Shown here one piece after another: positions 10,189-29,284 of a stretch of 29,284 bases of DNA (its first letter is position 1; every line of letters begins with the position of its first letter). The DNA is from an uncultured Flavobacteriaceae bacterium (GTDB lineage Bacteria > Bacteroidota > Bacteroidia > B-17B0 > Aurantibacillaceae). Both the position numbers and the translations under genes were made by a program. The stretch lies in assembly GCA_964603125.1 (NCBI GenBank), contig CAZRUA010000041.1, forward strand, positions 1-29,284, in the 5' to 3' direction. The notes beneath the pieces are model-generated. The model did not search any database, was not told the origin of the DNA, and worked only from the letters and a program-made list of their open reading frames with translations.

Positions 10189-10254
10189 AAAAAATAACTA
10201 CAAAAATCACAAAGTAAAAGTTCGATAAAGTTTTATATTTGTGCCCCAAAATAA

Positions 10255-11292: not shown

Positions 11293-11307
11293 TTAATACA
11301 AAAACGA

Positions 11308-11970: not shown

Positions 11971-11981
11971 TTACATTTTTG

Positions 11982-12968: not shown

Positions 12969-12996
12969 TACAATTTTTTATTGGTAATTAAACTGA

Positions 12997-14312: not shown

Positions 14313-14320
14313 ACTATTTT
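14313..14320 (+). promoter_or_regulatory. Candidate Bacteroidetes -7 promoter element upstream of nrdB
   Basis: tatttttg matches TAnnTTTG about 40 nt upstream of the nrdB ATG, within a 450-bp AT-rich leader. Confidence 0.3.
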
Positions 14321-14359
14321 TGACTTTATATATAAACAAAACGAATTAAAATTAATTGT

Positions 14360-15331
14360 ATGAACGAACCAATCCTAACCGAAAACAAAGACAGATTTGT
14401 ACTATTCCCTATTAAGCACAAAGATATTTGGGATATGTACAAAAAAGCAGAAGCTAGTTTTTGGACCGCAGAAGAGATTGATTTAGCTCCAGACTTACAA
14501 GATTGGAACAATAAGTTAAACAATGATGAAAAACATTTCATTAAGAATGTACTAGCCTTTTTTGCTGCTAGCGACGGTATTGTTAATGAAAACCTAGCTA
14601 TTAACTTCTTAAATGACGTTCAATATCCTGAAGCACGTTGTTTTTATGGGTTTCAAATCATGATGGAAAATATCCATTCTGAAACTTATTCCTTATTAAT
14701 TGATACTTATATTAAAGATAATGTAGAAAAAGATAAATTATTACATGCAATCGAAACAGTTCCTTGTGTTCAAAAGAAAGCTGAATGGGCTTTAAAATGG
14801 ATTTCAAACGGAACATTTGCTGAGCGCTTAATTGCCTTTGCTGCGGTTGAAGGTATTTTCTTTTCTGGATCTTTCTGTTCAATTTTCTGGTTAAAAAAAC
14901 GTGGCTTAATGCCAGGCTTAAGCTTCTCTAACGAGTTAATCTCTCGTGACGAAGGTTTACACTGTGATTTTGCATGTTTATTATATTCTCAATTAGTACA
15001 TAAATTACCTGTAACTCAAGTAACTGAAATTATTACTAATGCAGTGGCTATTGAGAAAGAATTCGTAACAGATTCATTACCAGTTAAGTTAATTGGAATG
15101 AATGCTGATTTAATGTGTCAATACATTGAGTTTGTGGCAGATAGATTATTAGTGTCTTTAGGCTGTCCAAAATTCTATAACGCTGCTAACCCATTCGATT
15201 TCATGGAGTTAATTTCTTTACAAGGAAAAACTAACTTCTTCGAAAAACGTGTAGCAGAATACCAAAAAGCAGGTGTTACCAACTCGAAAAAAGAGGATAA
15301 CACGGTGTTTAAATTAGACGAAGATTTCTAA
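14360..15331 (+). CDS. nrdB: Ribonucleoside-diphosphate reductase small (beta) subunit, class Ia
   Basis: 323-aa protein with the R2 di-iron ferritin-like fold (FWTAEEIDL, the ENIHSETY iron ligands, FFAASDG). Confidence 0.9.
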
Positions 15332-15359
15332 TCATTCATCTTACGGTTAAATTACCCCA

Positions 15360-15377
15360 ACGATATAACAATATCGT
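15360..15377 (+). terminator. Intercistronic hairpin between nrdB and nrdA (partial terminator or attenuator)
   Basis: acgatat-aaca-atatcgt forms a 7-bp stem with a 4-nt loop. It lies 29 nt after the nrdB stop and is followed by aagggattttta. Confidence 0.35.
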
Positions 15378-15529
15378 AAGGGATTTTTAGCCTCTGGATT
15401 TAAAGAAAAAAGTAATTAACCGCCAAATTGTTAATAGAAAAATTTGGCACGATAAATAAAAAAACCTTGTTGACGTAAATTGCGTTAAGAAAAAGAACTA
15501 GAGTAAAAACCTTCAAAAAACAATGGCGT

Positions 15530-17944
15530 ATGTTTGTAATTAAAAGAGATGGCACAACAGAGACAGTGAAATTCGACAAGATCACTGCACGTATTCAAAA
15601 ACTCAGCTACGGATTAGATCCTGTACACGTTCAACCTATTGATGTTGCTATGAAAGTAATCAATGGATTGTATGATGGTGTATCAACTAGTCAGTTAGAT
15701 AATTTAGCAGCTGAAACAGCAGCTTCATTAACAACAAAGCACCCTGATTATGCTTTATTGGCTTCTCGTATCGTAGTTTCAAACTTACACAAAAACACTA
15801 CAAAATCGTTTTCAAAAACAATTAGCGATTTATACTTTTATACAGATCCAAAAACAGGACAAAAAGCTGCATTAATTGCTGATGATGTTTATGAAATAGT
15901 TCAGGCAAACGCCCAATTACTTGACTCAACTATTATTTATGATCGCGATTTTGGTTACGATTATTTTGGTTTTAAAACTTTAGAGCGCTCTTATTTATTA
16001 AAATTACACGGTCAAGTTGCTGAACGCCCTCAGCACATGATTATGCGTGTTGCCATTGGAATTCACAAAGAAGATATTACATCAGCCATTGAAACATACC
16101 ACTTAATGAGTGAACGTTGGTTTACACACGCTACTCCAACTTTGTTTAATGCTGGTACGCCAAAACCTCAAATGTCATCTTGTTTTTTAATTCAAACTAA
16201 AGATGATAGTATTGATGGTATTTACGATACATTAAAAAGCTGTGCTAAAATTTCACAATCAGCAGGTGGAATTGGTTTAAGCATTCACAATATTAGAGCT
16301 ACAGGTTCTTACATTAAAGGAACTAACGGAACATCAAATGGTATTATACCAATGTTGCGTGTATTTAATGACACTGCTCGTTATGTTGACCAAGGTGGAG
16401 GGAAACGTAAAGGTTCATTCGCTATCTATTTAGAACCATGGCATGCAGATATTTTTGATTTCTTAGATATCCGTAAAAATCATGGTAAAGAAGAACAACG
16501 TGCTCGTGATTTATTTACTGCACTTTGGATTTGCGATTTATTTATGAAGCGTGTGGAAGAAGAAGGAGATTGGACTTTATTCTGCCCGAACGAAGCTCCA
16601 GGCTTATCAGATTGTTGGGGACAAGAGTTTGAAGCTCTTTACACAAAATACGAAGCTGAAGGACGTGGACGTAAAACAATTAAAGCACGCGAATTATGGG
16701 CTGCAATAATTGATGCACAAATTGAAACAGGTAATCCATACATGTTGTATAAAGATGCTTGTAACTCGAAATCAAATCAACAAAATTTAGGTACCATCAA
16801 GTCTTCGAACTTATGTACTGAAATTTTAGAGTACACTGCTCCAGATGAAATTGCTGTTTGTAATTTAGCTTCTATTGCTTTACCTCGTTTTGTTGACTTA
16901 GAAAAAGGAATTTTTGATCACCAAAAATTATTTGAAGTAACTTATGTTGCTACAAAAAATTTAAACAAAATTATCGATCGTAACTACTACCCAGTTGCAG
17001 AAGCTCGTAAATCAAACTTACGTCACCGTCCTATCGGACTAGGTGTTCAAGGTTTAGCTGATGCGTTTATTATGTTACGTTTCCCTTTTGAAAGTGATGA
17101 AGCTCGTAAATTAAACTCTGAAATTTTTGAAACTATTTACTATGCAGCAATGACAGCTAGTAAAGATTTAGCAAAAATTGAAGGTCCTTACGAAACTTAT
17201 GCTGGATCGCCAGTATCAAAAGGTCAATTCCAATTTGACATGTGGGGTGTAACTCCAAGCCCACGTTGGGAATGGGATGTGTTAAAAGAAGAAGTAATGA
17301 AACATGGTGTACGTAACTCATTATTAGTTGCACCAATGCCAACAGCTTCAACTTCACAAATTTTAGGTAACAATGAGTGTTTTGAACCATATACTTCAAA
17401 CATTTATTCTCGTCGTGTGTTATCAGGAGAATTTGTTATTGTAAATAAACATTTATTAAAAGACTTAGTGAAACTAGGAATTTGGAATGACGGTTTAAAA
17501 AACAAAATTATCGCTGCAAACGGTTCAATCCAACACATTGCTGAAATTCCAGAAAACATTAAAGAACTTTACAAAACAGTTTGGGAAATTAAACAACGTG
17601 CTATATTAGATATGGCTGCTGATAGAGGTGCATATATTTGTCAATCGCAATCATTAAACTTATTTATTCAAGATGCGAACTTCGCAAAAATGTCATCTGC
17701 ACATTTCTATGCTTGGAAAAAAGGTTTAAAAACAGGTATGTATTACTTAAGAACAAAAGCTGCAGCTGATGCAATTAAGTTTACTGTTGATACAACTGCT
17801 AAAGAAGAAATTTTAGGTAACGAAGATATTTTAGTGGCACAACGTAGCACAATGACACCAGCTAATTTAAGCGAAGAAGAAATTCAAGCACAATTATCTT
17901 GCTCATTAGATAATCCTGAAGGATGCGAAATGTGCGGTTCTTAA
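15530..17944 (+). CDS. nrdA: Ribonucleoside-diphosphate reductase large (alpha) subunit, class Ia
   Basis: N-terminal ATP cone ([22 protein letters not shown]) and catalytic-domain motifs (NLCTEI, the C-terminal CxxC tail CEMCGS). Length is 804 aa. Confidence 0.9.
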
Positions 17945-17970
17945 AATTAAGAATTCTAAATATTAAAAAA

Positions 17971-17997
17971 AGCCACGTTAATAGCGTGGCTTTTTTA
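17971..17997. terminator. Bidirectional rho-independent terminator between nrdA and the convergent downstream gene
   Basis: agccacg-ttaatag-cgtggct forms a 7-bp GC-containing stem followed by ttttttatt. It also sits at the 3' end of the minus-strand gene 17995-19080. Confidence 0.7.
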
Positions 17998-19080
17998 TTG
18001 TGTGAATTGCAAAACAGTTGGATCATAGGTTTTATAAGATAGAACCTTAGAAATCTTTCTACCCTTATATTCAATTGTAATTCTGCTTGTGTCTTTAGAA
18101 TTACTAGACGGAAGTTTGCAACCAGCAAACCACGCATAATCGCGCAAATCCGCATAATGATACTCTCCTTCTTCTCCAGAACAATTTATTTCAATCAATC
18201 TATTCTTTGCGTCATATACAAAGTTTATCTTGGAACAATGATTATATTTTCCATTTATTGGTAATGAGTCCGCATCAAACCACTCTATACATTTAATCCT
18301 GTTGTTTTCATAAGTATGTAATTCGAGCGCTATGCCGTAATCATCTCCAATTAAATGACTAGTTGAGTCAAAATATCTCCTTTGAATTAACTTTTTCTGT
18401 GAATAAGTATTTATGTAACCAGACCAAGAGAATTGAATATCACAACCTAAAACTCCTGCCTTTCTATAAAACATTTCACTTACTAAACCAAAGTTCTTAT
18501 TATATTTTGTAACCCAATAATTAATTTTTGTTGTGTCATTTTTTTTAATCTGTCCCCTTACATCATAATTATTTTTAAAATACCAAAAAGATCCTTCACA
18601 AGTATCATTATTTGAAATGTTCTTATAATAAGTTTCACTGAATTTTTTTCCTCTCGTAAAATTAACTTCCTTACAAAACCCTGAAATATTTTCTTTGAGT
18701 TGACCAAGTGAATCGTAAAAAATTGTAGTTCTTTCAATTACCTTTCTTCTTTGAATAGCTCTATAAACCTTATAAGCGATTCCTTCATAATCACAAACTA
18801 GATGACCAAGTGTATCCATATAAGATTCCTTCCAACAACTATTCTTCTTATCCTTTTCTCGCACAACTTCCCATACAGAATTTCCATAGGAATATAATGG
18901 GACGCGTCTATTTGTCGAATCAAAACAAATTTCCTTTGATTTCGATTTACTCAACCAAATTCTTTCAATTGTACTTCCATTGTCTTCTCTAAATTTAATA
19001 TTCGTTCTTTGTGAGAATCCGATTTGACAGAAAGTCAAAACTAAAACAATGAATATTTTTAATAAAAACTTCATTATCAA
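17995..19080 (-). CDS. Secreted hypothetical protein, W/Y/C-rich with YD-repeat-like motifs
   Basis: Signal peptide MIMKFLLKIFIVLVLTFCQIGFSQ. The motifs FYDSLGQL and YDAKNRLIEI resemble YD/RHS repeats. Confidence 0.45.
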   Translation of the reverse strand: MIMKFLLKIFIVLVLTFCQIGFSQRTNIKFREDNGSTIERIWLSKSKSKEICFDSTNRRVPLYSYGNSVWEVVREKDKKNSCWKESYMDTLGHLVCDYEGIAYKVYRAIQRRKVIERTTIFYDSLGQLKENISGFCKEVNFTRGKKFSETYYKNISNNDTCEGSFWYFKNNYDVRGQIKKNDTTKINYWVTKYNKNFGLVSEMFYRKAGVLGCDIQFSWSGYINTYSQKKLIQRRYFDSTSHLIGDDYGIALELHTYENNRIKCIEWFDADSLPINGKYNHCSKINFVYDAKNRLIEINCSGEEGEYHYADLRDYAWFAGCKLPSSNSKDTSRITIEYKGRKISKVLSYKTYDPTVLQFTQ

Positions 19081-19140
19081 ATATAGTCAATCTATATTTG
19101 AATCGCGCAATTCAATTAAATAAAATTTATATTCATTTTA

Positions 19141-19397
19141 AACACGCTGCGAAACCCTTTTAAAATATAGTGATTCAAAGCTATCAGTTTCTAAGAACAC
19201 TGAAATAAAATTTAAAAAGACAAAAAAAATTTTTGCAGATAAAAAATTTAAATTACTTTTGCATCACAAATAAAAATTATAAACTAAAAAATTAAACGAA
19301 AGAAACAATGTTGGTGTTAAATTTACATACGAAACCTTAAACCGGAAACATTAGTACTATCAATACTTTCAGCCCGGTTTATTGCCGGGTTTTTTAT
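19141..19397 (+). repeat. Copy 1 of a diverged ~260-bp direct repeat: promoter-like -33/-7 elements, a ~130-nt A-rich transcript region, and an intrinsic terminator. Candidate sRNA or attenuator leader upstream of rtcB
   Basis: TTTG at 19232-19235 and TAcTTTTG at 19254-19261 match Bacteroidetes -33/-7 elements. A terminator gcccgg-tttattg-ccgggt plus a T-run lies at 19372-19397. The region is homologous to 21901-22185 (cgaaacccttttaaaatatag vs cgaaacacctttaaaataaag; ttttgcatcacaaataaaaatt vs ttttgcatcataaaatattaaaaat). Confidence 0.4.
19372..19397 (+). terminator. Intrinsic terminator ending repeat copy 1
   Basis: 5-6 bp GC stem (gcccgg/ccgggt) with a 7-nt loop, followed by ttttttatttg. Confidence 0.5.
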
Positions 19398-19619: not shown

Positions 19620-21023
19620 ATGGGAAAAAATAGATTGAAGGGAAAACATTTAAGGAAAATAGATTTCCCTTCGGACATAGCTAAAAGTTTAGCATTAAAT
19701 ATTATGACGAAACATTTTAAACATGTTTCAAACGAAGAAAAATTACAAATAATACAAAACGTTCTTTTAAATCCTGAACAATACTTAGAAGATGAACATC
19801 TAAAACCCTTGTCGATTGCCTTAGTTGGGAAGCCAAAAATGAAAACTGATTATGAAGTTCACATGTTAAAACACAGTGGTGATTTTACCATTTATGGTCT
19901 ACGTCATATCGGACAAAATGCAATTCAACAAATGGAAGCAGCGATGCGATTACCCATCTCGATGAAAGGAGCTTTAATGCCTGATGCTCATCATGGATAT
20001 GGTTTGCCAATCGGCGGTGTACTAGCAACAAATAACGCAGTAATCCCTTTTGGAGTAGGCCTGGATATTGGTTGTCGAATGGCTTTGAGTATTTACAAAC
20101 TTCCAGAAGATTACATTCAACGCAAGGAGTATGATTTACAAAAAGCATTGCGTAGATATACACATTTTGGAAATGATGGGACACTTGATTTTGAAGTAGA
20201 TCATGAAGTGCTTGAGCGCCCTGAATTTCAAGCCACTGAATTACTCCGAAGATTACATGGTAAAGCGTGGTTTCAACTAGGTTCATCAGGCACAGGAAAT
20301 CATTTTGTTGAATTTGGAAATGTAACAATTGCTCAAAACAATACATTGAATTTACAACCTGGGAATTACATTGGTTTACTATCTCACAGCGGTTCAAGAG
20401 GCATGGGTGCTGCCATAGCAGCAACTTATACTAAAATAGCAATGCAAAAATGCAAACTTCCGCGTGAAATGCAATCAATGGCTTGGTTAAGTTTAGATGA
20501 AGAAGCTGGTCAAGAGTATTGGTTATCCATGAACTTAGCGGGTGACTATGCAAAAGCCTGTCATGATGTGATTCACAAAAACCTTGAACGTGTAATGGGC
20601 TTAGAAGCTATATGCAAAGTTGAGAATCATCACAATTTCGCATGGAAAGAAATACACGACGGTCAAGAATTGATTGTACACCGAAAAGGCGCAACGCCAG
20701 CAAACAAAGGTGAATTCGGTATCATACCAGGAAGTATGAGCAGCAATGGATACATAGTAAGTGGTTTAGGATTACAGGGTTCAATTAATTCAGCATCGCA
20801 TGGGGCCGGCCGAAAAATGTCACGTAAAGAAGCAAGAGAGAGTATAACAAAATCTTCGATGACAAATTTATTAGCCGAACAAAGTGTGAAATTAATTGGT
20901 GGCAGCGTAGAAGAGGCTTCATTTGCTTACAAGGATATTGAGACTGTTATGAGCTGTCAACAAGACCTAGTAAAAATAGAAGGTTCATTCACTCCAAAAA
21001 TTGTAAGGATGAACAAAAGTTAA
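19620..21023 (+). CDS. rtcB: RtcB-family 3'-phosphate/5'-OH RNA ligase (PrfH-associated RtcB2-type)
   Basis: DAHHGYGLPIGG and GSSGTGNHFVEFG are metal and GTP-binding motifs. The His-rich core is typical of RtcB. It sits immediately upstream of prfH, as in the E. coli rtcB2-prfH pair. Confidence 0.85.
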   Translation: MGKNRLKGKHLRKIDFPSDIAKSLALNIMTKHFKHVSNEEKLQIIQNVLLNPEQYLEDEHLKPLSIALVGKPKMKTDYEVHMLKHSGDFTIYGLRHIGQNAIQQMEAAMRLPISMKGALMPDAHHGYGLPIGGVLATNNAVIPFGVGLDIGCRMALSIYKLPEDYIQRKEYDLQKALRRYTHFGNDGTLDFEVDHEVLERPEFQATELLRRLHGKAWFQLGSSGTGNHFVEFGNVTIAQNNTLNLQPGNYIGLLSHSGSRGMGAAIAATYTKIAMQKCKLPREMQSMAWLSLDEEAGQEYWLSMNLAGDYAKACHDVIHKNLERVMGLEAICKVENHHNFAWKEIHDGQELIVHRKGATPANKGEFGIIPGSMSSNGYIVSGLGLQGSINSASHGAGRKMSRKEARESITKSSMTNLLAEQSVKLIGGSVEEASFAYKDIETVMSCQQDLVKIEGSFTPKIVRMNKS

Positions 21024-21123: not shown

Positions 21124-21774
21124 ATGGAAACAAAAATATTACAAATAACATCAGGTAGAGGCCCCGCAGAATGCTGTTTAGCTGTTGCATTGACCTTGAA
21201 AGAAATATTGAAGGAGGCTAAAGAAAATAATTTAGCATGTGAAGTAATTAACCGCACACCATATAACATAAACGGAACTTTAGCTTCCGCATCTGTTAAA
21301 ATAAGTGGGAAAAACATTTCTCCATTCATTAATTCTTGGCAAGGTGTATTAGGTTGGATTTGTCAAAGTCCTTTCAGAACGATGCATAAAAGAAAAAACT
21401 GGTTCATAGGAATTGAAGTCTACGACTTATCATCCACTTCACAATGGAGTGAAAAAGATGTTTACTATCAAACACTTCGATCTTCAGGTCCAGGTGGTCA
21501 AAACGTAAATAAAGTAGAAACAGCTGTAAGAGCCGTACACAAGCCTTCAGGCGTGCAGGTTTTAGCTAATGAATCTCGTTCGCAAATGCAAAATAAAAAA
21601 ATTGCGTTAGAGCGATTAAAAGAATTATTTATACAATGGCAATTAAACAATTTAAGAAAAACAGAAAAGCAACAATGGCAAAATCATAATTGTGTTGAAA
21701 GAGGTAATCCAAAAAGAATTTACAAAGGAATCAATTTCAAAAAAGAAAAAATTGGACGTAGTCGAATCAATTGA
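21124..21774 (+). CDS. prfH: Peptide chain release factor homolog RF-H (PrfH)
   Basis: GGQ motif in context (LRSSGPGGQNVNKVETAVRAVH). The N-terminal GPAECCLAV, WICQSPFRTMHKRKNWFIGI and C-terminal ERGNPKRIYKG all align with my recollection of E. coli PrfH. Length is 216 aa. Confidence 0.85.
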   Translation: METKILQITSGRGPAECCLAVALTLKEILKEAKENNLACEVINRTPYNINGTLASASVKISGKNISPFINSWQGVLGWICQSPFRTMHKRKNWFIGIEVYDLSSTSQWSEKDVYYQTLRSSGPGGQNVNKVETAVRAVHKPSGVQVLANESRSQMQNKKIALERLKELFIQWQLNNLRKTEKQQWQNHNCVERGNPKRIYKGINFKKEKIGRSRIN

Positions 21775-21900
21775 TAATAAAGGATTCCAAAGCAAATGAG
21801 AAATTAAAAATTAAAAACTAGCAAGTATTAAAAAATTAAAACGAAACATACAGAATTCAATTTTGATTTATAAAAAATAAAATTGAAATAATAAATTTAT

Positions 21901-22185
21901 AATAATTTTAAATAAGGCTCGAAACACCTTTAAAATAAAGCTCTTCAAGGCAGTATGTTTTTAGAAAAGAAAAATATTTAAAATTTATTTCATAAAATAT
22001 TTTTTCAATTCAAAAATTTGATTTAGTTTTGCATCATAAAATATTAAAAATAAAATGAAAAATAGTTTTACATATCGTCAAAAGTCAATCCTGATAGGGC
22101 ATGCGCCGTTATCATATTGCATGGGGTGGTAAAATTATTTTAAATAATAATTCTAAACCCCGATACGCTCGGGGTTTTTTTATGA
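21901..22185 (+). repeat. Copy 2 of the diverged direct repeat (promoter-like elements, ~145-nt transcript region, terminator), downstream of prfH and upstream of the Rnl5-like ATP-dependent ligase gene
   Basis: TTTG at 22005-22008 and TAgTTTTG at 22024-22031. A terminator ccccga-tacgc-tcgggg plus T7 lies at 22155-22181. Homologous to 19141-19397. Confidence 0.4.
22155..22181 (+). terminator. Intrinsic terminator ending repeat copy 2
   Basis: aaaccccga tacgc tcggggttt followed by tttttttatg. Confidence 0.55.
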
Positions 22186-22328: not shown

Positions 22329-22379
22329 TATGAACAAAAATTGCTAAGGTGTCTCAGTACCAAAGCATGTTAGAGGAAG

Positions 22380-22407
22380 CCTTCCATCAAATGGGTGGAA
22401 GGTTTTA
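22380..22407 (+). terminator. Third hairpin plus T-run immediately upstream of the Rnl5-like ATP-dependent ligase gene start
   Basis: ccttcc-atcaaatgggt-ggaagg followed by ttttat, about 30 nt before the ATG at 22438. Confidence 0.35.
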
Positions 22408-22437
22408 TAAAAAATAAAAGAAAGGAGAAAAAATAAA

Positions 22438-23439
22438 ATGAGGAAATTAGCTTCAATACAAAAAATTAAAAATATAGAACCAATCGAAGGTGCAGATTCA
22501 ATTATGAAAGCAAGTGTTTTAGGTTGGCAATTAGTAATTAGAAAAGATGAATTTAAAATTGGTGATTTATGCGTTTACTGTGAAATTGACAGTGTATTAC
22601 CCGATAAACCAGAATTTGAATTTATCCGTGCTAAAACTAATCGTATTAAAACTATAAAATTACGTGGTCAAATTTCACAAGGTATCTGCTTTCCATTATC
22701 AGTTTTACCAGAAGGTATAGAGATTGTTGAGGATTTAGACGTTACAGAAATAATTGGTGTAACAAAATTTGAACCGCCAATTCCTGCTAACTTAGCTGGT
22801 GAGATTAAAGGCTTATTTCCTTCATTCATGCCTAAAACAGATGAAACTAGGGTGCAAGTTTTACAACATGTTTTAGATCAATACAAAGGATTAACCTGTT
22901 ACATTGCTGAGAAATTAGATGGAAGCTCTGTAACTTATTACTTCAAAGATGGTGAGTTTGGAGTTTGTTCGCGGAATTTAGATATAGTTAAAAACGAAGA
23001 AAACTCAATGTGGAAATTTGCAATTGAGAACGATTTAGAACAAAAGTTAAAATCATTAAACAAAAACATTTGCTTACAAGGTGAAATAATTGGTGAGGGT
23101 ATTCAAAAAAATAAATACAAGTTAAAAGGTCAAACGGTTTTCTTTTTTAATGTATTTGATATTGATAAATATGAATACTTATCATTAAGCTACTTTAAGC
23201 AAATAATAAATGATTTGAACTTAAAGCATGTTCCAATTATTGAAGATCAATATGAGTTAACGAACAATATGGATGAATTAATTTTAAAATCTAAATTAAA
23301 GTCGACGTTAAACAAAGATACAATCGCTGAAGGTATTGTTATCAGGCCAACGACAGAGATGATTGAAAAACATAAATTACAAGGACGCTTGTCGTTTAAA
23401 GTTATCAATCCAGATTTTTTAATAAAATACGACGAGTAA
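22438..23439 (+). CDS. ATP-dependent RNA ligase, Rnl5-like (DraRnl/NgrRnl-type: N-terminal OB-like domain plus nucleotidyltransferase domain)
   Basis: Motif I KxDG (AEKLDGSSV), motif IV EGIVIR, motif III-like FFFNVFDI and a motif V-like RLSFKVINPD. The N-terminus MRKLASIQKIKNIEPIEGADSI ... GWQLV resembles the N-terminal domain of Deinococcus/Naegleria nick-sealing RNA ligases. Confidence 0.65.
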   Translation: MRKLASIQKIKNIEPIEGADSIMKASVLGWQLVIRKDEFKIGDLCVYCEIDSVLPDKPEFEFIRAKTNRIKTIKLRGQISQGICFPLSVLPEGIEIVEDLDVTEIIGVTKFEPPIPANLAGEIKGLFPSFMPKTDETRVQVLQHVLDQYKGLTCYIAEKLDGSSVTYYFKDGEFGVCSRNLDIVKNEENSMWKFAIENDLEQKLKSLNKNICLQGEIIGEGIQKNKYKLKGQTVFFFNVFDIDKYEYLSLSYFKQIINDLNLKHVPIIEDQYELTNNMDELILKSKLKSTLNKDTIAEGIVIRPTTEMIEKHKLQGRLSFKVINPDFLIKYDE

Positions 23440-23547
23440 TTAAGAATGTAGAATGATGAATTCAGAACTAAAGCGACAAATAAAATTCAGTTTTTTATAT
23501 CTACCGAATTACGGTTGAATGGAGATCGTATGCTTAACTAAGCATAA

Positions 23548-23580
23548 GCCCGGTCTCAAAAGGATCGGGCTTTTTGTTTT
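23548..23580 (+). terminator. Terminator after the Rnl5-like ATP-dependent ligase gene
   Basis: agcccg-(13 nt)-cgggct followed by ttttgtttt. It is preceded by a second hairpin, tatgctta/taagcata, at 23530-23547. Confidence 0.5.
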
Positions 23581-23596
23581 ATTGCCTTCTTAGCCG

Positions 23597-23614
23597 ATCC
23601 CGATTGTAATCGGG
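23597..23614. repeat. Variant copy of the CCCGAT-N4-ATCGGG palindromic hairpin (TCCCGATTGTAATCGGGA)
   Basis: cccgatt/aatcggg is a 7-bp inverted repeat. It shares its arms with the 18-bp palindrome at 23649, 23732 and 26642. Confidence 0.5.
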
Positions 23615-23648
23615 AAGGCACTTGTCTTAGAAAAGAAAGGTGAGTTCG

Positions 23649-23666
23649 TCCCGATAGCTATCGGGA
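23649..23666. repeat. 18-bp perfect palindrome TCCCGATAGCTATCGGGA (copy 1)
   Basis: Exactly self-complementary. An identical copy lies 83 bp downstream. Confidence 0.6.
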
Positions 23667-23672
23667 TTGCAG

Positions 23673-23761
23673 AAGGCACAATGCACTTGTGGCGGAAATG
23701 GTATACGCAACAGACTTAAACTCTGTTATGAATGTTGGTTCTCCCGATAGCTATCGGGACT
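23673..23761 (+). tRNA. tRNA-Leu(TAA)-like type-II tRNA-like gene with non-canonical T-arm region (possible pseudo-tRNA)
   Basis: Acceptor GCACTTG/CATGTGC with one T-T mismatch. D-arm GCG-(11 nt with GG)-CGC. Anticodon arm AACAGA/TCTGTT with loop CTTAAAC (anticodon TAA). The T-arm position is occupied by the 18-bp palindrome (23732-23749) instead of a GTTCRANYC loop. Confidence 0.3.
23732..23749. repeat. 18-bp perfect palindrome TCCCGATAGCTATCGGGA (copy 2), embedded in the Leu-like tRNA-like element
   Basis: Identical to the copy at 23649-23666. Confidence 0.6.
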
Positions 23762-23767
23762 ATCATG

Positions 23768-23854
23768 TGCACTAAGAGGAGAAATAATCGAGCAGGGCTC
23801 GAACTTGTTTGCTAAACAATGTGTCCGCCTAATGGTGGTTGAGTGTCGGGAACT
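23768..23854 (+). tRNA. tRNA-Ser(GCT)-like type-II tRNA-like gene with non-canonical D-arm and T-loop
   Basis: Acceptor GGAGAAA/TTTCTCC is perfect. A CTTGT/ACAAT stem carries the loop TTGCTAA (anticodon GCT). The variable arm is CCGCC-TAAT-GGTGG. The T-arm is TGAGT-GTCGGGA-ACTCA and lacks the TTC T-loop signature. Confidence 0.3.
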
Positions 23855-23868
23855 CATTTCTCCGCAAA

Positions 23869-23951
23869 GGAAGATAGCGACCAGTGGTGGTCAGGCAGAC
23901 TTGAAATCTGCAGCGGTCTGAAAGGACAGGGTTCGACTCCTATATCTTCCG
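23869..23951 (+). tRNA. tRNA-Ser(TGA)-like type-II tRNA with weak T-stem
   Basis: Acceptor GGAAGAT/ATCTTCC is perfect. Anticodon arm GCAGA-CTTGAAA-TCTGC gives anticodon TGA. The variable arm is GTCT-GAAA-GGAC. The T-loop TTCGACT is canonical but the T-stem has only 3 bp. The D-arm GACC-AGTGGT-GGTC has one extra nucleotide at each junction. Confidence 0.4.
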
Positions 23952-23982
23952 CAAGTATTAAATTAAAATTGTTCTTTAAACA

Positions 23983-24055
23983 CGATTTATAGTATAATGG
24001 ATAACACACCCGATTACGACTCGGGAGACTTAAGGTTCGAGTCCTTATAAATCGA
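23983..24055 (+). tRNA. tRNA-Arg(ACG)
   Basis: 73 nt. Acceptor CGATTTA/TAAATCG. Anticodon arm CCCGA-TTACGAC-TCGGG. T-arm TAAGG-TTCGAGT-CCTTA. The D-stem has one A-C mismatch. The gene is AT-rich, and CCA is not encoded. Confidence 0.65.
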
Positions 24056-24060
24056 CGAAA

Positions 24061-24134
24061 TGAGATATAGCTCAACAGGTAAGAGCAGGTGCCTTATACG
24101 CACAAGGCTATAGGTTCAAATCCTATTATCTCAA
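24061..24134 (+). tRNA. tRNA-Ile(TAT)
   Basis: 74 nt. Acceptor TGAGATA/TATCTCA (U1-A72). D-arm GCTC-AACAGGTAA-GAGC. Anticodon loop CTTATAC (anticodon TAT). T-arm ATAGG-TTCAAAT-CCTAT. One G-A mismatch closes the anticodon stem. Confidence 0.6.
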
Positions 24135-24143
24135 CAAATAAAT

Positions 24144-24216
24144 CGGTCTATAGCTCAGATGGCAGAGCACCGTCCTTTTAAGACGGGAGTCCTTGGTTCG
24201 AATCCAAGTAGGCCGA
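24144..24216 (+). tRNA. tRNA-Lys(TTT)
   Basis: Fully canonical cloverleaf. Acceptor CGGTCTA/TAGGCCG (one G-U). D-arm GCTC-AGATGGCA-GAGC. Anticodon arm CCGTC-CTTTTAA-GACGG. T-arm CTTGG-TTCGAAT-CCAAG. Confidence 0.8.
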
Positions 24217-24226
24217 CAAATAAAAA

Positions 24227-24299
24227 CGGGATGTATTTCAATTGGTAGAATACGTGTTCTGGAAACATGAGGTTGCAGGTTCGAGTCCTGCCATCCCGA
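24227..24299 (+). tRNA. tRNA-Pro(TGG)-like with C at position 33 and an A/U-rich 3-bp D-stem
   Basis: Acceptor CGGGATG/CATCCCG. T-arm GCAGG-TTCGAGT-CCTGC. Anticodon stem CGTGT/ACATG with loop TCTGGAA (C33, anticodon TGG). An alternative fold gives a 9-nt loop. Confidence 0.5.
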
Positions 24300-24304
24300 C
24301 GAAT

Positions 24305-24378
24305 GGTGAAATTAGTGTAATGGCAAACACAAAAGCCTGTGAAGCTTTTAATACAGGTTCGATTCCCTTATTTCACCC
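24305..24378 (+). tRNA. tRNA-His(GTG)-like (G-1 encoded) with weak T-stem
   Basis: G-1 plus GTGAAAT/ATTTCAC, with C73. D-arm GTGT-AATGGCAA-ACAC. Anticodon arm AAAGC-CTGTGAA-GCTTT. The T-loop TTCGATT is flanked by a 3-of-5 paired stem (ACAGG/CCCTT). Confidence 0.5.
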
Positions 24379-24381
24379 ATT

Positions 24382-24454
24382 GGACAAGTAGCAAACGTGG
24401 TGTATGCGCTGGACTGAAAATCCAGAGAAAGTGGTTCAACCCCACTCTTGTCCA
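24382..24454 (+). tRNA. tRNA-Phe(GAA)
   Basis: Acceptor GGACAAG/CTTGTCC. Anticodon arm CTGGA-CTGAAAA-TCCAG. T-arm AGTGG-TTCAACC-CCACT. 3-bp D-stem with an 11-nt loop and a 4-nt variable loop. Confidence 0.65.
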
Positions 24455-24521
24455 CAAAAATTATTAGTAAAGCAAAAGCTATCTGGCTAAAAAAGAGATA
24501 GTAAATAATTAAAACAAAAAA

Positions 24522-24857
24522 ATGAAAACAACTTTCGAATTCAGAAAAAAGTTTTTAGAAGGTAGAGATGATTCAGGAAGATTCATTGTAACATCATACC
24601 GAACTGGTAAGACGTATTTTATCGAACCTATTGGCCCTGATAGAGCCGCTGATTGGGGAAGTTACAATCCTTCAACAGGAAACATCGAAAACAAAAAAGG
24701 TTTTGATAAACATAGAGGTGCAATTGATGAAAAAGATTCTCTAATTACGAAGGAAAATGGATTCCTTGATATTAGATATTCGGGAGTAGGAGGATCACCT
24801 TTTAGTGTAATTGAAAAAATGGATGCTCAGTATCCCAACATCAATAAAATTCACTAA
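24522..24857 (+). CDS. Hypothetical 111-aa protein embedded in the tRNA array
   Basis: ORF with a proper ATG. I recognise no motif. It lies between tRNA-Phe and tRNA-Tyr and is followed by the hairpin gcggaatt ... aattccgc at 24869-24892. Confidence 0.45.
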   Translation: MKTTFEFRKKFLEGRDDSGRFIVTSYRTGKTYFIEPIGPDRAADWGSYNPSTGNIENKKGFDKHRGAIDEKDSLITKENGFLDIRYSGVGGSPFSVIEKMDAQYPNINKIH

Positions 24858-24905: not shown

Positions 24906-24989
24906 GGGAATGCGCTAACGATGGTGAGTTAGACTGGTCTGTAACACCAGGGTCATTTGACTTAATAGGTTCGAATCCTATCATTCCCA
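24906..24989 (+). tRNA. tRNA-Tyr(GTA), type II
   Basis: Acceptor GGGAATG/CATTCCC. D-arm CTAA ... TTAG. Anticodon arm CTGGT-CTGTAAC-ACCAG. Long variable arm GTCA-TT-TGAC. T-arm ATAGG-TTCGAAT-CCTAT. Position 8 is C. Confidence 0.65.
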
Positions 24990-25034
24990 CAACAATTATC
25001 GTTTCAAGCCGAAATTGTTATATAGTTCTTTGAT

Positions 25035-26039
25035 TTAATAGTTTTTCAATGCGTCTTTAAATCGCTCTTGCATTTTAAGGCTTAATCTTCTTGGACTTAG
25101 CACTTTTACATGCTCACCATAACCGAGCAGTTCTCGTTCTAACTCAAAGTTCCAAATAACTTTAATAGAAAAGATTGTTCCATCATCTTCTTCTTTTAAT
25201 ACTTCTTGGGAAACGTGGAGTGGTTTTGTAATAATATATGGTGCATGTTCTTTAACAAACTTAAGCACTATGGTTTGGGCTCTTTGATTAATGTTTTTAG
25301 TTACTCCAATTGTATCGGCGTAATAATCATTAACATTAAAGTCAGGCTTTACATACTTCTCTGAGTTTAATTCCTGAATATTGAGTATTCTATCCAGAGC
25401 AAGATTCATAATCGTTTTATTCTTTCGAGTTGCACCAAGAATAAACCATCTATTACGATACTCTTTAAGCAAATACGGATAAAAAATAATTTGCTGAGGA
25501 ATACGAGCTTTAAAAGATTGATAAGAAATTTCAAGCGTTTTTTTGCTAATAATTGCCTTATGCAAAATATCGATATACTTTAAACCTTTCACGAGCACAT
25601 TCTTTTCAAACTCAATATAGGATTTACCTTTATGGCTTTGTTTGTAGAGTTTATCTTCAAGTCGAGTTACCATTCCGTTAAGCTCCTCAAAAAAACCAAA
25701 TGCTTTAAACTGCTTTAAAACATCAACTACTTCATTCAAAGTATTCATGTCTTGTTGAGTTAAAGGATTATTTGTGATACTGTAGTCTTTCTCGGCGTAA
25801 CTATAATACTTTTTATCACTTACAATAATTGGCGCATTGTACCCAAGCTTTTCGCTTCGCATATTATAAATATCGAGTTGTAAAGTTCGTCGACTAACGC
25901 CAGTAGTAATTCCTTCGTATTCATAAAGCGCATCAGAGCAAGCTTCCATAAGATCTTCTAATGTCCATTTACGAAAACGGTTTTGCAAACAGTTATCAAT
26001 TGTTTTATAACGAATAAGGGCTAATTTGTTTATTGACAT
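25035..26039 (-). CDS. WYL-domain transcriptional regulator (N-terminal HTH, central WYL, C-terminal extension)
   Basis: 334 aa. The WYL-domain signature RNRWFILGATRKNKTIMNLALDRILNI gives the W-F/Y-L triad and an (L/F)RLDRI motif. The N-terminal MSINKLALIRYKTIDNCLQNR is HTH-like. Confidence 0.65.
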   Translation of the reverse strand: MSINKLALIRYKTIDNCLQNRFRKWTLEDLMEACSDALYEYEGITTGVSRRTLQLDIYNMRSEKLGYNAPIIVSDKKYYSYAEKDYSITNNPLTQQDMNTLNEVVDVLKQFKAFGFFEELNGMVTRLEDKLYKQSHKGKSYIEFEKNVLVKGLKYIDILHKAIISKKTLEISYQSFKARIPQQIIFYPYLLKEYRNRWFILGATRKNKTIMNLALDRILNIQELNSEKYVKPDFNVNDYYADTIGVTKNINQRAQTIVLKFVKEHAPYIITKPLHVSQEVLKEEDDGTIFSIKVIWNFELERELLGYGEHVKVLSPRRLSLKMQERFKDALKNY

Positions 26040-26247: not shown

Positions 26248-26565
26248 ATGAATAAATATATAAGATTAAAAGAAGAGTTAGAAAAAATAGGAATAGGTAA
26301 AATGAAATGCTTTGGAAACTCAATGCTTCCAATTTTAAAAAGCGGCTCATTGCTAACCTTTAAAAAAGAAAATGATTACAAAGTAAATGATATTGTGTTT
26401 TGTAAAGTGAAAGGGAGATTCATCGATGCGCACCTAATTACAAAGATTGATGCAAACAGAGGGTATCTGATAGCAAACAATCATGGTTATGAAAATGGTT
26501 GGACAAAAATAATATATGGAAAAGCCGTATACAGTGAATTTAAGAATGAAAGTAAAAAACTATAA
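26248..26565 (+). CDS. S24-family (LexA/UmuD-like) peptidase domain protein, stand-alone
   Basis: GNSMLP matches the G-[DN]-S-M-x-P catalytic Ser motif of S24/S26 peptidases. A downstream Lys (KVKGRF) could serve as the general base. Only 105 aa, so the peptidase domain alone. Confidence 0.45.
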   Translation: MNKYIRLKEELEKIGIGKMKCFGNSMLPILKSGSLLTFKKENDYKVNDIVFCKVKGRFIDAHLITKIDANRGYLIANNHGYENGWTKIIYGKAVYSEFKNESKKL

Positions 26566-26659: not shown

Positions 26660-26873
26660 GAATAATATATTAACAATTGGTTAGCCAAATATGGCGCACC
26701 AGATAGATGTAAAATTGTTGCTATGCTCTTGTTAAAGCGTAGTTAGTATAAGGAGTGGTTAAAGGCCACAGCTCGATAACAATAAGGGCAAAGTTTGTAA
26801 AAGCCTATACGTTACATAGCATCTATCAAAGTACTGGTTTAATAAATGGAATAAATCCCATTGAAACCTAAAA

Positions 26874-26942
26874 ACATTTCAGGCTATGGCAGCCAATTGC
26901 TCTCCAAAAGCAAAGGACAACGTTCGATTCGTTGGAAATGTG
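26874..26942 (+). tRNA. tRNA-Trp(CCA)-like with shortened D-arm
   Basis: Acceptor ACATTTC/GAAATGT is perfect. Anticodon arm TTGCT-CTCCAAA-AGCAA gives anticodon CCA. T-arm CAACG-TTCGATT-CGTTG is canonical. The D-arm GGCT-ATGGC-AGCC is irregular. Total length 69 nt. Confidence 0.35.
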
Positions 26943-27201
26943 CCAATAGAATAATAGCAGCTAGGGCAAAGCCTTGTTTAAAACGTAGGAAATTCCCGTT
27001 ATTATTCTAAAAACTTAAAACATTGTTCATTGAAAAACAAAATACTGTTCGGAAGAACAAAAAATCTTCCTCGTGCCAGAGGAAGCGCGATACATAAACA
27101 AAACAATGCCTTGTTGTGGGTTTAAAACGCCCCATAGTATTGTACCAGTAGGAATCAATATACTGCAGCGCCATGTTTAGGGTATTGCTCATGTTGGGGT
27201 C

Positions 27202-27359
27202 AAGGGTTCAATTCCCTTTTTGTTCACAAGGACAAATAGCTCAGTTGGTTAGAGCACAACGCTTAGGTTACGGGTTCGAGTCCCGTCACGATTTCGCTCG
27301 TGTAACTCAATGGTAGAGTAATGGACTGAAAATCCATGCGTAGAAGTTGACTTACTTCT
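27202..27359 (+). pseudogene. String of degenerate tRNA-like modules: a 3' T-arm-plus-acceptor fragment, a D-arm-plus-T-arm module lacking an anticodon arm, and a tRNA-Phe(GAA)-like copy lacking a 3' acceptor strand
   Basis: 27202-27226 is AAGGG-TTCAATT-CCCTT followed by TTTGTTC. 27230-27293 is GGACAAA-TA-GCTCAGTTGGTTAGAGC, 13 nt, ACGGG-TTCGAGT-CCCGT. 27296-27359 is GCTCGTG-TA-ACTC-AATGGTA-GAGT-A-ATGGA-CTGAAAA-TCCAT followed by AGAAG-TTGACTTA-CTTCT. The junctions form hairpins: TTTGTTC/GGACAAA and CACGA/TCGTG. Confidence 0.3.
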
Positions 27360-27610: not shown

Positions 27611-28714
27611 ATGATACAAAGAGTAAAAGTTGATGCCTGGAAAAAAGGCTTGGTAATTAAAAACAACAATTTAATTGATGTTTTAAGTGAAGGTACATAC
27701 TGGTTATCTGCAAGTGTAGCTGTAATTAATTATGATATGGCTAAACCATTTGTTGCGCCAATTAACCTTAACATTTTGATGAAAAATCAAAAATTTGCAG
27801 ATGCGGTTAAAATAGTAAACGTAGCCGACAATGAAATAGCATTGCGCTATGAAGGAGATACATTTGTTGAAGTATTAACCCAAGGTAAATACCTCTATTG
27901 GGAAGGTTTGGTAGAACACAAAATAATTGCAATTGACTTGAGTGTTGTGGATATTGATGTTGGCATAGATAAAGCAATACTTACACGTAAAGAGCTTGCT
28001 CCATACATACGCACTTTTGTTATAGAACCTAATGAAAAAGCAATTGTTTATATTGATGGTAAGTTCAACAAAATTGTTGAAGCAGGTTCTTACAGCTATT
28101 GGAAAAACAATACTAACATAGCCATAACAAAAGTTGAAACACGAACCATGCAAATGGAAGTTGCTGGTCAAGAAATACTGACAAAAGATAAGGCCGTAAT
28201 ACGACTAAACTTTTACTTGCAATACAATGTTGTTGACGCTGTTAAAGCAATTTTAAACAACAAGGAGTACGAAAAACAATTGTATGTTTTAATACAGCTT
28301 GCTTTACGTGAATTTGTTGGTTCCATGACCTTAGATGAGCTTTTAGAGAAAAAAGAAAATGTATCTGATTACATATTGGATTCAACTGCTCGAAAAGTTT
28401 CATACTTGGGTGTATTAATAAAAGGTTGTGGTATACGTGATATTATTTTACCTGGTGATATGAAGGAAATAATGAATCAAGTATTGATTGCAGAGAAAAA
28501 AGCCCAAGCTAACACAATTATGCGTCGTGAGGAAACTGCCTCAACACGTAGCTTGCTAAATACTGCAAAGCTAATGGAAGACAATGCGATGTTGTTTAAG
28601 TTAAAAGAAATGGAATATGTAGAAAAGATTGCAGAGAAGATAAATACTATTTCATTATCAGGTGGTTCACAAATTGTGGATCAGCTAAAACAAATATTTG
28701 TCTCTAATAAATAG
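27611..28714 (+). CDS. SPFH (band 7 / stomatin-prohibitin-like) domain protein with ~170-aa N-terminal extension
   Basis: The C-terminal half carries an SPFH-domain pattern (KDKAVIRLNFYLQYNVVD ... REFVGSMTLDELLEKKENVS ... IRDIILPGDMKEIMNQVLIAEKKAQANTIMRREE). Confidence 0.65.
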   Translation: MIQRVKVDAWKKGLVIKNNNLIDVLSEGTYWLSASVAVINYDMAKPFVAPINLNILMKNQKFADAVKIVNVADNEIALRYEGDTFVEVLTQGKYLYWEGLVEHKIIAIDLSVVDIDVGIDKAILTRKELAPYIRTFVIEPNEKAIVYIDGKFNKIVEAGSYSYWKNNTNIAITKVETRTMQMEVAGQEILTKDKAVIRLNFYLQYNVVDAVKAILNNKEYEKQLYVLIQLALREFVGSMTLDELLEKKENVSDYILDSTARKVSYLGVLIKGCGIRDIILPGDMKEIMNQVLIAEKKAQANTIMRREETASTRSLLNTAKLMEDNAMLFKLKEMEYVEKIAEKINTISLSGGSQIVDQLKQIFVSNK

Positions 28715-28742: not shown

Positions 28743-28813
28743 AGGGATAAAATGCCCTTTCGTCTAACGGCAGGACGTTACTTTTTGACAGTAAATATTG
28801 TGGTTCGAATCCA
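28743..28813 (+). tRNA. tRNA-Gln(TTG)
   Basis: Acceptor TGCCCTT/AAGGGCA (U1-A72, as is usual for bacterial tRNA-Gln). D-arm GTCT-AACGGCA-GGAC. Anticodon arm TTACT-TTTTGAC-AGTAA is perfect. T-arm TGTGG-TTCGAAT-CCACG with one U-G pair. The variable loop is 4 nt. Confidence 0.7.
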
Positions 28814-29284
28814 CGAAGGGCAACAAAAATAAACTTATAGATTATCTGCCGCGGCAGAGTAAAAGCTGCTGTAAAATTACTTAACCGCGAAGTGTGGGGA
28901 TAATTCCGGCGAGCCTTGACGTTGCGAAGAGCTGAGTTTACAGTGCACCGGAAAAGAGAAATCAAAGTAGGGAAGCGTATTTATAGCCATACTATTCAGA
29001 AATGAAAATGGAGGTTCGAATCCCATTAGGGCCGCAGAAAGGGACTGACCTGATAAAAAAGGGTTCAGTCCCTTTGTCATTAAAAGAAAATCGCCCGACA
29101 GACGGGCGATTTCAGCGATTACAGAATTTATTTTTGGAGTTCGAAATGACCCATTTTTTCGATCATAAACAATCCCTTCAGGAAAGACTAATTTTTGCAA
29201 TTTTTCCTTGAGATTTATGCTTCCTTTGAGCCACAATCTCGTGATTTTCAGGCACAATTGGGCTACCTCATGTAGGCTTTCGCA

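Follow-up and report, generated by a model that had tools for sequence, protein, structure and literature searches.

ATP-dependent RNA ligases of the Rnl5 family, such as DraRnl (DRB0094) from Deinococcus radiodurans and NgrRnl from Naegleria gruberi, seal 3′-OH/5′-PO4 nicks in duplexes whose 3′-OH strand is RNA, accept a DNA 5′-phosphate strand and are feeble on single-stranded RNA, and their physiological substrates have been unknown since the description of DraRnl in 2004 (PMC4408790). Here an rnl5 gene was analyzed in a stretch of 29,284 nucleotides (nt) from an uncultured Flavobacteriaceae bacterium (contig CAZRUA010000041.1, positions 1–29,284; the whole stretch is referred to below as the window), where it lies between an rtcB-prfH gene pair and a cluster of tRNA genes. 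On balance, the evidence favors an active Rnl5 that forms the ATP-dependent arm of a conserved island of uncultured Bacteroidia responding to damage of the translation machinery.

RtcB joins 2′,3′-cyclic phosphate or 3′-phosphate ends to 5′-OH ends, and its end chemistry is indeed opposite to that of Rnl5, as stated in an earlier note on this DNA made from the sequence alone. The E. coli RtcB2 that is paired with PrfH repairs colicin-E3-cleaved 30S subunits (16S rRNA) and not tRNAs (PMC9304027), so that by analogy the two ligases of the window probably differ in substrate as well as in chemistry. As in the E. coli pair, RtcB of the window is followed immediately by a PrfH equivalog in the same orientation; the window RtcB is, however, divergent, with an N-terminal extension, and the pair shares its surroundings with a second ligase and tRNAs and is under predicted leader-peptide attenuator control, to which relatives add an FtsH-like AAA/M41 protease. 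The Salmonella rsr-yrlBA-rtcBA operon, induced by translation or RNA damage (PMC7790460, PMC4201824), resembles the island in that relatives of the window carry Ro60/TROVE and tRNA-like Y RNAs beside an RNA ligase operon, and differs in that the island has a WYL regulator and attenuators in place of RtcR/sigma-54 as well as Rnl5 and a tRNA cluster, and that the window is without TROVE. Thg1-like proteins rebuild RNA 5′ ends, and the linkage of their genes to those of RNA ligases was already recorded in 2010 (PMC2904730).

Phage T4 (Pnkp with Rnl1, and Rnl2) likewise co-encodes ATP-dependent RNA ligase with spare tRNAs, presumably for surviving tRNA-cleaving nucleases, whereas the island is chromosomal, has no Pnkp and contains RtcB as well. 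The parallel with T4 Rnl1/Rnl2 and its tRNA cluster drawn in the earlier note thus stands broadly but not for loop-specific Rnl1, the apt analog being Rnl2, since Rnl5 ligases seal duplex nicks (PMC4408790) and the island enzyme would be Rnl2-like in activity. Dense, accessory and fast-evolving tRNA genes are also a feature of tRNA array units (PMC4758250, PMC5966550) and of tRNase-evading phage tRNAs (PMC10264068); the genes of the window fall below the formal definition of an array unit (at least 20 genes at a density of at least 2 per kb; PMC4758250), are therefore called a tRNA gene cluster here, and differ in their tight linkage to RNA-repair enzymes. The ligase itself shares with DraRnl/DRB0094 and NgrRnl (PDB 5COT) an OB domain followed by a nucleotidyltransferase domain, the lack of a C-terminal domain, the active-site residues and the TIGR02306 assignment, and is set apart by its conserved context (tRNA cluster, RtcB-PrfH and WYL regulator, with Thg1 and Ro60 in relatives). 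RtcB-PrfH pairs, Ro60/Y-RNA-RtcB operons, Thg1-ligase neighborhoods and tRNA arrays are each already known. No description was found in the searchable literature of an obligate linkage between Rnl5 and a tRNA cluster in a Bacteroidia clade, of the assembly of Rnl5 with RtcB-PrfH, Thg1, Ro60 and WYL in one island or of the leader-peptide attenuators of the island, a partial prior description being possible.

Identity and active site of the ligase

The rnl5 open reading frame (ORF; 22438..23439, plus strand) starts with ATG and encodes 333 amino acids (aa), with motif I (KLDG) at residues 159–162, motif IV (EGIVIR) at residues 298–303 and the N-terminal string MRKLASIQKIKNIEPIEGADSI, all as previously described from the sequence. 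Profile searches, which the earlier note had proposed as a check of its Rnl5-like assignment and of the likeness of the N-domain to that of DraRnl/NgrRnl, gave strong ligase-family matches and bore out both. In Pfam, residues 4–87 matched the PHA02142/Rnl5 OB N-domain PF21189 (E 1e-35) over profile positions 1–92 of 92, and residues 155–323 matched the RNA_ligase nucleotidyltransferase domain PF09414 (E 1.2e-26), while the NCBIfam equivalog TIGR02306 (RNA_lig_DRB0094) scored 193.1 bits against a cutoff of 151.15. The best solved structures were all of N. gruberi NgrRnl (5cot/6vt*), with an E of 6e-70 and an end-to-end alignment over residues 1–331.

The NgrRnl residues that contact ATP and two metals have been defined in a structural and mutational study (PMC7261155). 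In an alignment to NgrRnl, its Arg4, Asp53, Lys121, Thr145, Arg149 and Lys170 correspond to R2, D51, K110, T134, R138 and K159 of the window protein, and its Asp172, Arg190, Glu227, Phe248, Glu312 and Lys326 to D161, R179, E216, F237, E298 and K321. All 12 mapped active-site residues are thus kept, and they are invariant across an alignment of 14 homologs (62–100% identity). Among them are K159 at the nucleophile position, the KxDG lysine whose conservation had been singled out as decisive, the further motif residues (K159-L-D-G, E216, E298-G-I-V and K321) and R2, D51 and K110 of the N-domain. The protein stops 12 residues past K321 (motif V) and is therefore without a C-terminal domain, like Rnl5 and unlike Rnl1–4. 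As judged from these sequence features, the ORF encodes a genuine full-length Rnl5 (DraRnl/NgrRnl) ATP-dependent RNA ligase, which is a new member of a known and biochemically characterized family, copies in relatives being already auto-annotated as “RNA ligase (ATP)”.

Conservation of the island in related genomes

Related loci (4 fetched by exact protein look-up and 80 from one genome per species) were annotated with ARAGORN and by tblastn using the island proteins of the window together with Thg1, TROVE, RNase T and other proteins of relatives. Ligases at least 69% identical to that of the window formed a single clade in a neighbor-joining tree (L001–L003 and L005–L015, from 11 distinct genomes that bear the names Flavobacterium, Sediminibacterium, Bacteroidia or Bacteroidota, the window not counted; Rnl5 identity 69–78%), and every one of them is directly followed by a tRNA cluster, with 7–12 tRNAs within 6 kb. 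Two further Rnl5 clades (L017 and L023; L026, L074 and L081; from Cytophagales and Emticicia) also had tRNA clusters plus TROVE and/or RtcB, and about 60 other, stand-alone Rnl5 loci had essentially no nearby tRNAs. The link between ligase and tRNAs is thus stronger than the earlier note could know, extending to the whole ligase clade and to at least two other Rnl5 clades.

The ligase belongs to a larger conserved island, whose order is RtcB-PrfH, (Thg1-like), Rnl5, tRNA cluster, WYL, (Ro60/TROVE and Y-RNA-like), SPFH, S24-like and (RNase T). On the 5′ side of rnl5, relatives carry RtcB, PrfH, an AAA/M41 FtsH-like protease, an unknown 468-aa protein and a Thg1-like protein, the last located immediately 5′ of rnl5 in L001, L002, L006, L008, L011 and L013. 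Their tRNA cluster usually runs Gln-UUG, “Leu”-UAG, Ile-UAU, Pro-UGG, Arg-ACG, Phe-GAA, His-GUG and Tyr-GUA, and is followed, in loci whose sequence covers the downstream flank, by a divergent WYL regulator and then usually by TROVE/Ro60 (present in L001, L002, L006, L008, L012 and L014) with extra tRNAs and YrlA-like RNAs, SPFH, S24 and RNase T. RtcB-PrfH, Thg1, TROVE, SPFH, S24 and RNase T were each found in most loci of the clade.

The window holds a reduced version of this island, without Thg1, TROVE, RNase T and the M41 protease. No remnant of these or of other genes of relatives was detected in the window by tblastn (E > 0.2), matches to TROVE having E > 0.9 only. Thg1 was also not seen in the available sequence of the basal loci L012 and L014 or of the window's neighbors L005 and L010, so that its absence from the window may be ancestral rather than a loss.

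Some relatives carry additional genes. The soluble AAA+/M41 (FtsH-like) protease follows PrfH in L002 (4767–6815) and also in L006, L008, L013 and L014, where it possibly degrades peptides released from damaged ribosomes. In L002, an inserted ATP-grasp/HAD/sulfatase/radical-SAM cassette separates the tRNA cluster from the WYL gene. The island variant of L001/L015 has a reverse transcriptase (RVT_1, 503 aa; L001 6761–8272) 5′ of Thg1-Rnl5, separated from Thg1 in L001 by two small unannotated ORFs.

Gene content of the window

Bases 1–18,000 of the window encode GatB, a sigma factor, MsrAB, carbonic anhydrase, an ABC ATPase and NrdAB, and this housekeeping content of the left 18 kb identifies the window as chromosome, in line with the setting assumed earlier. 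GatB is 75–82% identical to proteins of metagenome-assembled genomes of uncultured Bacteroidia/Bacteroidota, and the G+C content is ~32% along the whole window. From 19.1 kb onward the gene content switches from housekeeping to island. RtcB, a 3′-phosphate/5′-OH RNA ligase of 467 aa (19620..21023, plus strand; PF01139, E 2.5e-76), is paired at a spacing of 100 nt with the release-factor homolog PrfH (21124..21774, plus strand), which has GGQ in its translation and scored 234.7 bits against a cutoff of 166.65 for the equivalog TIGR03072. Both genes lie upstream of rnl5 on the same strand, as the earlier note had placed them, and RtcB is RtcB2-like by context only.

Further along the island are a gene for a 111-aa protein (hyp111) whose fold was not matched and whose family occurs in tRNA clusters (24522..24857, plus strand), a WYL/WCX-domain transcription regulator (25035..26039, minus strand; PF13280 and PF25583, PADLOC WYL, synteny), a small S24-like peptidase of 105 aa (26248..26565, plus strand; PF00717, E 1.5e-6) and an SPFH/Band-7 protein (27611..28714, plus strand; PF01145, E 7e-26). 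The last two are island components on the basis of their synteny in relatives, and the divergent WYL regulator is present in related islands wherever the downstream flank is in the sequence. The absence of a Pnkp end-healing enzyme, which had been remarked on before, holds for the island proteins of the window (Pfam, NCBIfam, PHROG and PADLOC) and for annotated relatives, none of which includes a Pnkp-type kinase/phosphatase. A role of hyp111 as a hidden end-healing enzyme was considered and rejected, as it had no family match and its AlphaFold2 model (predicted local distance difference test score, pLDDT, 79) had no neighbor in PDB or BFVD. Among known defense systems, PADLOC matched the WYL regulator alone in the window.

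tRNA genes and other non-coding RNAs

All RNA genes described here are on the plus strand. ARAGORN tRNAs begin at 23983 and homology to relatives extends the cluster back to 23584, which agrees with the location of the ligase ahead of the tRNA genes given in the earlier note. Nine tRNAs were called by ARAGORN and ~11 with homology-based calls, spread over 5.3 kb, with a core block of 8 in 0.7 kb. Six genes, for Arg(ACG), Ile(UAU), Lys(UUU), Pro(UGG), His(GUG) and Phe(GAA), occupy 23983..24455, and are accompanied by tRNA-Tyr(GUA) (24906..24990; ARAGORN, Rfam) and by tRNA-Gln(UUG) (28753..28824; ARAGORN, synteny), which in relatives is the first tRNA after rnl5. Preceding the six is a block (23777–23954) 77–80% conserved in relatives, for example in L001 (11523–11703, including tRNA-Ser(UGA) at 11618–11701). 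It comprises a class II tRNA-Ser(UGA) (23869..23952), recognized by ARAGORN at an 85% threshold and by the Rfam tRNA-Sec model (E 7e-4), and an atypical, class-II-like tRNA-Ser(GCU)-like gene (23778..23864), likewise 77–80% conserved in all relatives, the D-hairpin of which covaries against L012; the array of L005 has an ARAGORN Ser-GCT at 11669–11756, whose equivalence to this gene was not aligned. An atypical tRNA-Trp(CCA)-like gene (26874..26945) was called by ARAGORN only, with no Rfam match, and is homologous to L001 17082–17163. The tRNA-His gene encodes G-1, and CCA is not encoded in any tRNA whose 3′ flank was read.

Isoacceptors of the cluster share a mean identity of only 0.63–0.83 across islands, with compensatory changes at 10–18 of ~20 stem pairs per family and few non-canonical cells; the Arg-ACG family has compensatory changes at 18 of its 21 pairs and 9 unpaired cells among 378. 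These compensatory stem changes, together with the low identity, indicate that the cluster tRNAs are under structural selection and diverge fast, faster than the adjacent proteins. Housekeeping tRNAs at such a genomic distance are normally near-identical, and the clustered tRNAs thus behave like accessory, phage-like tRNAs.

At the start of the cluster are two homologs of short tRNAs, which probably are pseudogenes as judged from their broken arms. The first, a tRNA(UAG) homolog recognized by comparison with relatives (23584..23678), is broken by an 18-bp palindrome in both the D-loop and the T-loop; the second, a tRNA(UAA) homolog aligned by eye to L005 11524–11598 and L012 1803–1878 (23683..23771, with a weak Rfam tRNA match at 23683–23736), has its T-arm broken by the same palindrome, TCCCGATAGCTATCGGGA. 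This perfect palindrome occurs in the window at 23598, 23649, 23742 and 26642 and also in L001 (7 copies), L002, L006, L044 and L054, with copies within and between tRNA genes of several islands and compensatory end variants (CCCCG...CGGGG). Its interpretation as a WYL operator was rejected because in several genomes copies lie in the loops of tRNAs or between them and compensatory variants occur; it is more likely a dispersed hairpin element, and may be a small mobile one. Short “Leu” tRNAs of the type that left remnants at 23584–23771 are found in the clusters of L001, L005, L010, L012 and megaphage L085 as class I tRNAs of 74–75 nt with anticodons UAG, UAA and CAG and without a long variable arm, although bacterial tRNA-Leu normally has one; the same clusters also contain the rare tRNA-Ile(UAU).

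Other structured elements were found 3′ of the core cluster. Tandem tRNA-like/Y-RNA-like modules (27152..27359) gave sub-threshold YrlA and partial tRNA matches and consist of tRNA-like fragments without an anticodon arm, homologous to RNAs located beside TROVE in L001, TROVE being absent from the window. Within them, 27194–27259 is 82% identical to the YrlA-like RNA adjoining TROVE in L001, and 27262–27326 matched YrlA (RF02553) with 39.7 bits against a gathering score of 69. As tandem tRNAs can give a false-positive YrlA match (PMC4201824), the latter could be such a case, but it is homologous to the YrlA-like RNA adjoining TROVE in L001. A ~185-nt structured non-coding RNA with a T-arm-like terminal hairpin (28845..29036) is conserved in L011 (10633–10812) and L012 (6443–6641), with 44 predicted pairs of which 9 show a compensatory change among the three sequences, and its L012 copy is flanked by TROVE and tRNA-Lys, where a Y RNA would be expected. 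Over the stretch of this RNA, the overlapping minus-strand ORF 28877–29257 is probably not a gene, and the candidate integrase/recombinase at the right end (minus-strand ORF 28877–29284) was discarded, as it had no Pfam match and the stretch is the conserved structured RNA. A 170-nt block (26693–26862) is 77% conserved with L001 16845–17012. Neither theta/HDV (hepatitis delta virus)-like ribozymes nor other known RNA families were found beside the tRNAs in Rfam, even at E up to 5.

Promoters, leaders and terminators

A promoter region of ~170 bp is duplicated 5′ of rtcB and rnl5 as direct repeats (19123–19270 and 21893–22040, 73–80% identical), and the elements that follow it are all on the plus strand. 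The rtcB-prfH operon has a Bacteroidota-type promoter by pattern match (TTTG ... TAnnTTTG; 19232..19261) with TTGATTTACATTTGC conserved in relatives, a 10-codon leader ORF, MLVLNLHTKP* (19308..19340), and an intrinsic terminator found by terminator scan and conserved in relatives (19371..19397). Nine unique homologous sequences, 5 of them metagenome loci found by pattern scan, retain the leader ORF, which has a modest codon-position bias (2/4/6 variable columns). In alifold, GAAACCTTAARCCGG at its 3′ end forms the 5′ strand of an antiterminator that pairs with the 5′ half of the terminator, the last codons of the ORF and the following GCCGG being able to make this pairing. Masked and constrained folding gave the terminator for naked RNA, the antiterminator with a ribosome on the early codons and the terminator again with a ribosome at the stop codon. 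The rtcB leader is accordingly modeled as a candidate trp-style attenuator, which would couple the expression of RNA repair to ribosome stalling.

The rnl5 operon (thg1-rnl5 in relatives) has a promoter with the −7 region TTGATTTAGTTTTGC (22018..22032), followed by a 25-codon leader ORF, MKNSFTYRQKSILIGHAPLSYCMGW* (22055..22132), which ends just past a conserved TGGGGT, and by an intrinsic terminator from the terminator scan (22155..22177), one stem pair of which is compensatory (G-C/A-U). The length of 25 codons is constant in 6 of 6 unique homologs at ~74% nucleotide identity, with the consensus MKNxFTYHAELSQIGHSPL...WGK* and a richness in Lys, Asn, Phe, Thr, Tyr and His codons. Pairing of UGGGGU with RCCCCG as an antiterminator of this leader was not favored in masked folding and was dropped as a weak idea. 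Closer to the gene is a 5′-untranslated region (5′-UTR) element (22336..22425) made up of an invariant GGTGTCTCAGTACC mini-hairpin (also given as GGUGUCUCAGUACC) and a covarying hairpin. This element was found 90–136 nt 5′ of rnl5 (90 nt in the window) in all 5 loci without Thg1 and only there (besides the window, L005 9853–9950, L010 86–185, L012 436–585 and L014 9891–9985); with 5 of its 14 pairs showing compensatory change and no Rfam match, it may be a new cis-regulatory RNA. A strong intrinsic terminator with an 11-bp stem, found by terminator scan and conserved in L008 and L014, follows rnl5 (23546..23572).

Discussion

The analysis establishes the family of the enzyme, its full set of catalytic residues, the synteny of the island, the structural constraint on its tRNAs and the conservation of leader ORFs and terminators. 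The substrates, inducing signal and physiological benefit that we infer would be as follows. Ribosomes whose rRNA has been cut by metal-independent ribotoxins, leaving 2′,3′-cyclic phosphate and 5′-OH ends, would be rescued by RtcB and PrfH. Rnl5, in an ATP- and Mn2+-dependent reaction through a lysyl-AMP on K159, would seal 3′-OH/5′-phosphate nicks with an RNA 3′-OH strand, directly resealing those left by metal-dependent nucleases in base-paired tRNA or rRNA. RtcB would be unable to join these ends in structured RNA, and with ends of this type no Pnkp end-healing would be needed. Stem-cutting bacterial tRNases do exist, one being a Schlafen whose cleavage site is position 30/31 of the anticodon stem (PMC13056530). 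In most relatives Rnl5 would work together with the Thg1-like protein as a 3′-5′ polymerase. Fast-evolving spare tRNAs would replace lost tRNAs and, in relatives, Ro60/Y-RNA and RNase T would clear irreparable RNA. Expression would be set by the WYL regulator and by leader-peptide attenuators reading ribosome stalling. An anti-nuclease function, as raised in the earlier note, is likewise a putative one.

Several points weigh against such a damage-response role. Most Rnl5 homologs at 60–64% identity are without island context, so that the family overall is not tied to tRNAs. The strong terminator after rnl5 separates the gene from the tRNAs, and no promoter for the tRNA cluster was recognized in promoter pattern searches. 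The stems of the rtcB attenuator are almost invariant and therefore show no covariation, and simple folding gave no antiterminator for the rnl5 leader. The window RtcB scored 144.3 bits against the cutoff of 271.8 for the proteobacterial (RtcB2-type) TIGR03073. Two of the tRNA homologs of the window look disrupted, and this, along with the missing Thg1, TROVE, RNase T and FtsH-like protease, may mean that its island is decaying.

A bolder version of the damage-response reading, put forward only tentatively, sees in the island an inducible kit of spare translation components that is complete in itself. Leader peptides would sense ribosomes that damaged tRNA or rRNA has stalled and would switch on both ligases with their opposite end chemistries, RtcB for rRNA and Rnl5 for nicked tRNA stems, while rapidly diversifying backup tRNAs would escape the attacking tRNases. 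If true, this would provide a first physiological substrate for Rnl5 and show that decoy or replacement tRNA sets against tRNA-targeting toxins are kept by bacteria as well as by phages.

A distinctly less probable explanation, partly compatible with a role in damage response, is that the ligase, tRNA cluster, hyp111 and S24-like gene are counter-defense cargo derived from huge Bacteroidota phages, which either serves a mobile element against host anticodon nucleases or is a cryptic remnant. The island does share parts with the tRNA regions of huge phages. Rnl5 matched phrog_968 (E 5e-76), and 350 phage records contained homologs, none of which reached 60% identity. The nearest of them (57%) is encoded by a 735-kb megaphage, where 25 tRNAs lie at most 12 kb from the ligase. 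The DRB0094-family ligase was reported in 2024 to be 140-fold enriched in gut phages with theta-ribozyme-flanked tRNAs (PMC10879173), which ties it to these tRNA-associated ribozymes. The hyp111 family (~285 clusters, 60–89% identical, no Pfam) was located inside a tRNA cluster in every context examined, covering bacterial islands and phage-like contigs of 100–520 kb (10–30 tRNAs per 16 kb), and a similar S24-like gene is present in the phage-like tRNA cluster of L198. The fast-evolving, phage-like tRNAs and the flanking genes of the island, which vary between genomes, also fit a cargo origin. On the other side, capsid, terminase and integrase genes were absent within 10 kb of any island locus and from the window, and just 13 of 82 ligase loci in IMG/VR had a tRNA within 5 kb. 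Moreover, the island proteins diverge in step with GatB (both Rnl5 and GatB of the window share 76% identity with their counterparts in the L001 genome), and a host-type WYL regulator and attenuators are present.

It appears unlikely that Rnl5 serves RNA maturation by joining or circularizing products of the adjacent non-coding genes, such as atypical or insert-bearing tRNAs and Y-RNA-like RNAs. Such a role would suit a ligase that always heads the cluster, the atypical tRNA-like genes, the tRNA matches with 36–70-nt insertions in relatives (L002 11716–11824, L001 16452–16594) and the structured RNAs with T-arm-like terminal hairpins in the clusters. However, the clustered tRNAs mostly form uninterrupted canonical cloverleaves, Rfam showed no ribozyme or intron family, and the insertions in the window are copies of the dispersed palindrome that break arms; products of a ribozyme or endonuclease would, in addition, bear cyclic phosphate and 5′-OH ends, which are not Rnl5 substrates. 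DNA repair as proposed for Deinococcus DraRnl, with RNA-patched DNA nicks being sealed and the RNA-repair neighbors incidental, is more improbable still: deletion of DraRnl sensitizes D. radiodurans to ionizing radiation (PMC5397189) and the acceptance of a DNA 5′-phosphate strand is in keeping with it, but the island contains no DNA-repair genes and the ligase has a conserved linkage to tRNAs, RtcB-PrfH, Thg1 and Ro60. Finally, although tRNA genes are often clustered and most Rnl5 genes stand alone, a chance juxtaposition of ordinary ligase and tRNA genes is effectively excluded by the same arrangement in 12 of 12 distinct clade members (window included) and the essential lack of nearby tRNAs at the ~60 loci outside the clade.

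For the Rnl5 family, the invariable linkage to spare tRNAs in this clade, together with Thg1-like, Ro60 and RtcB-PrfH genes, points to the repair of nicks in tRNA or rRNA, a first testable clue to the cellular repair target of these ligases that can be addressed directly in cultivable carriers. For the bacteria, the island suggests that tRNA clusters on chromosomes can serve in the response to damage as attenuator-controlled modules, which extends a concept known until now chiefly from phages.

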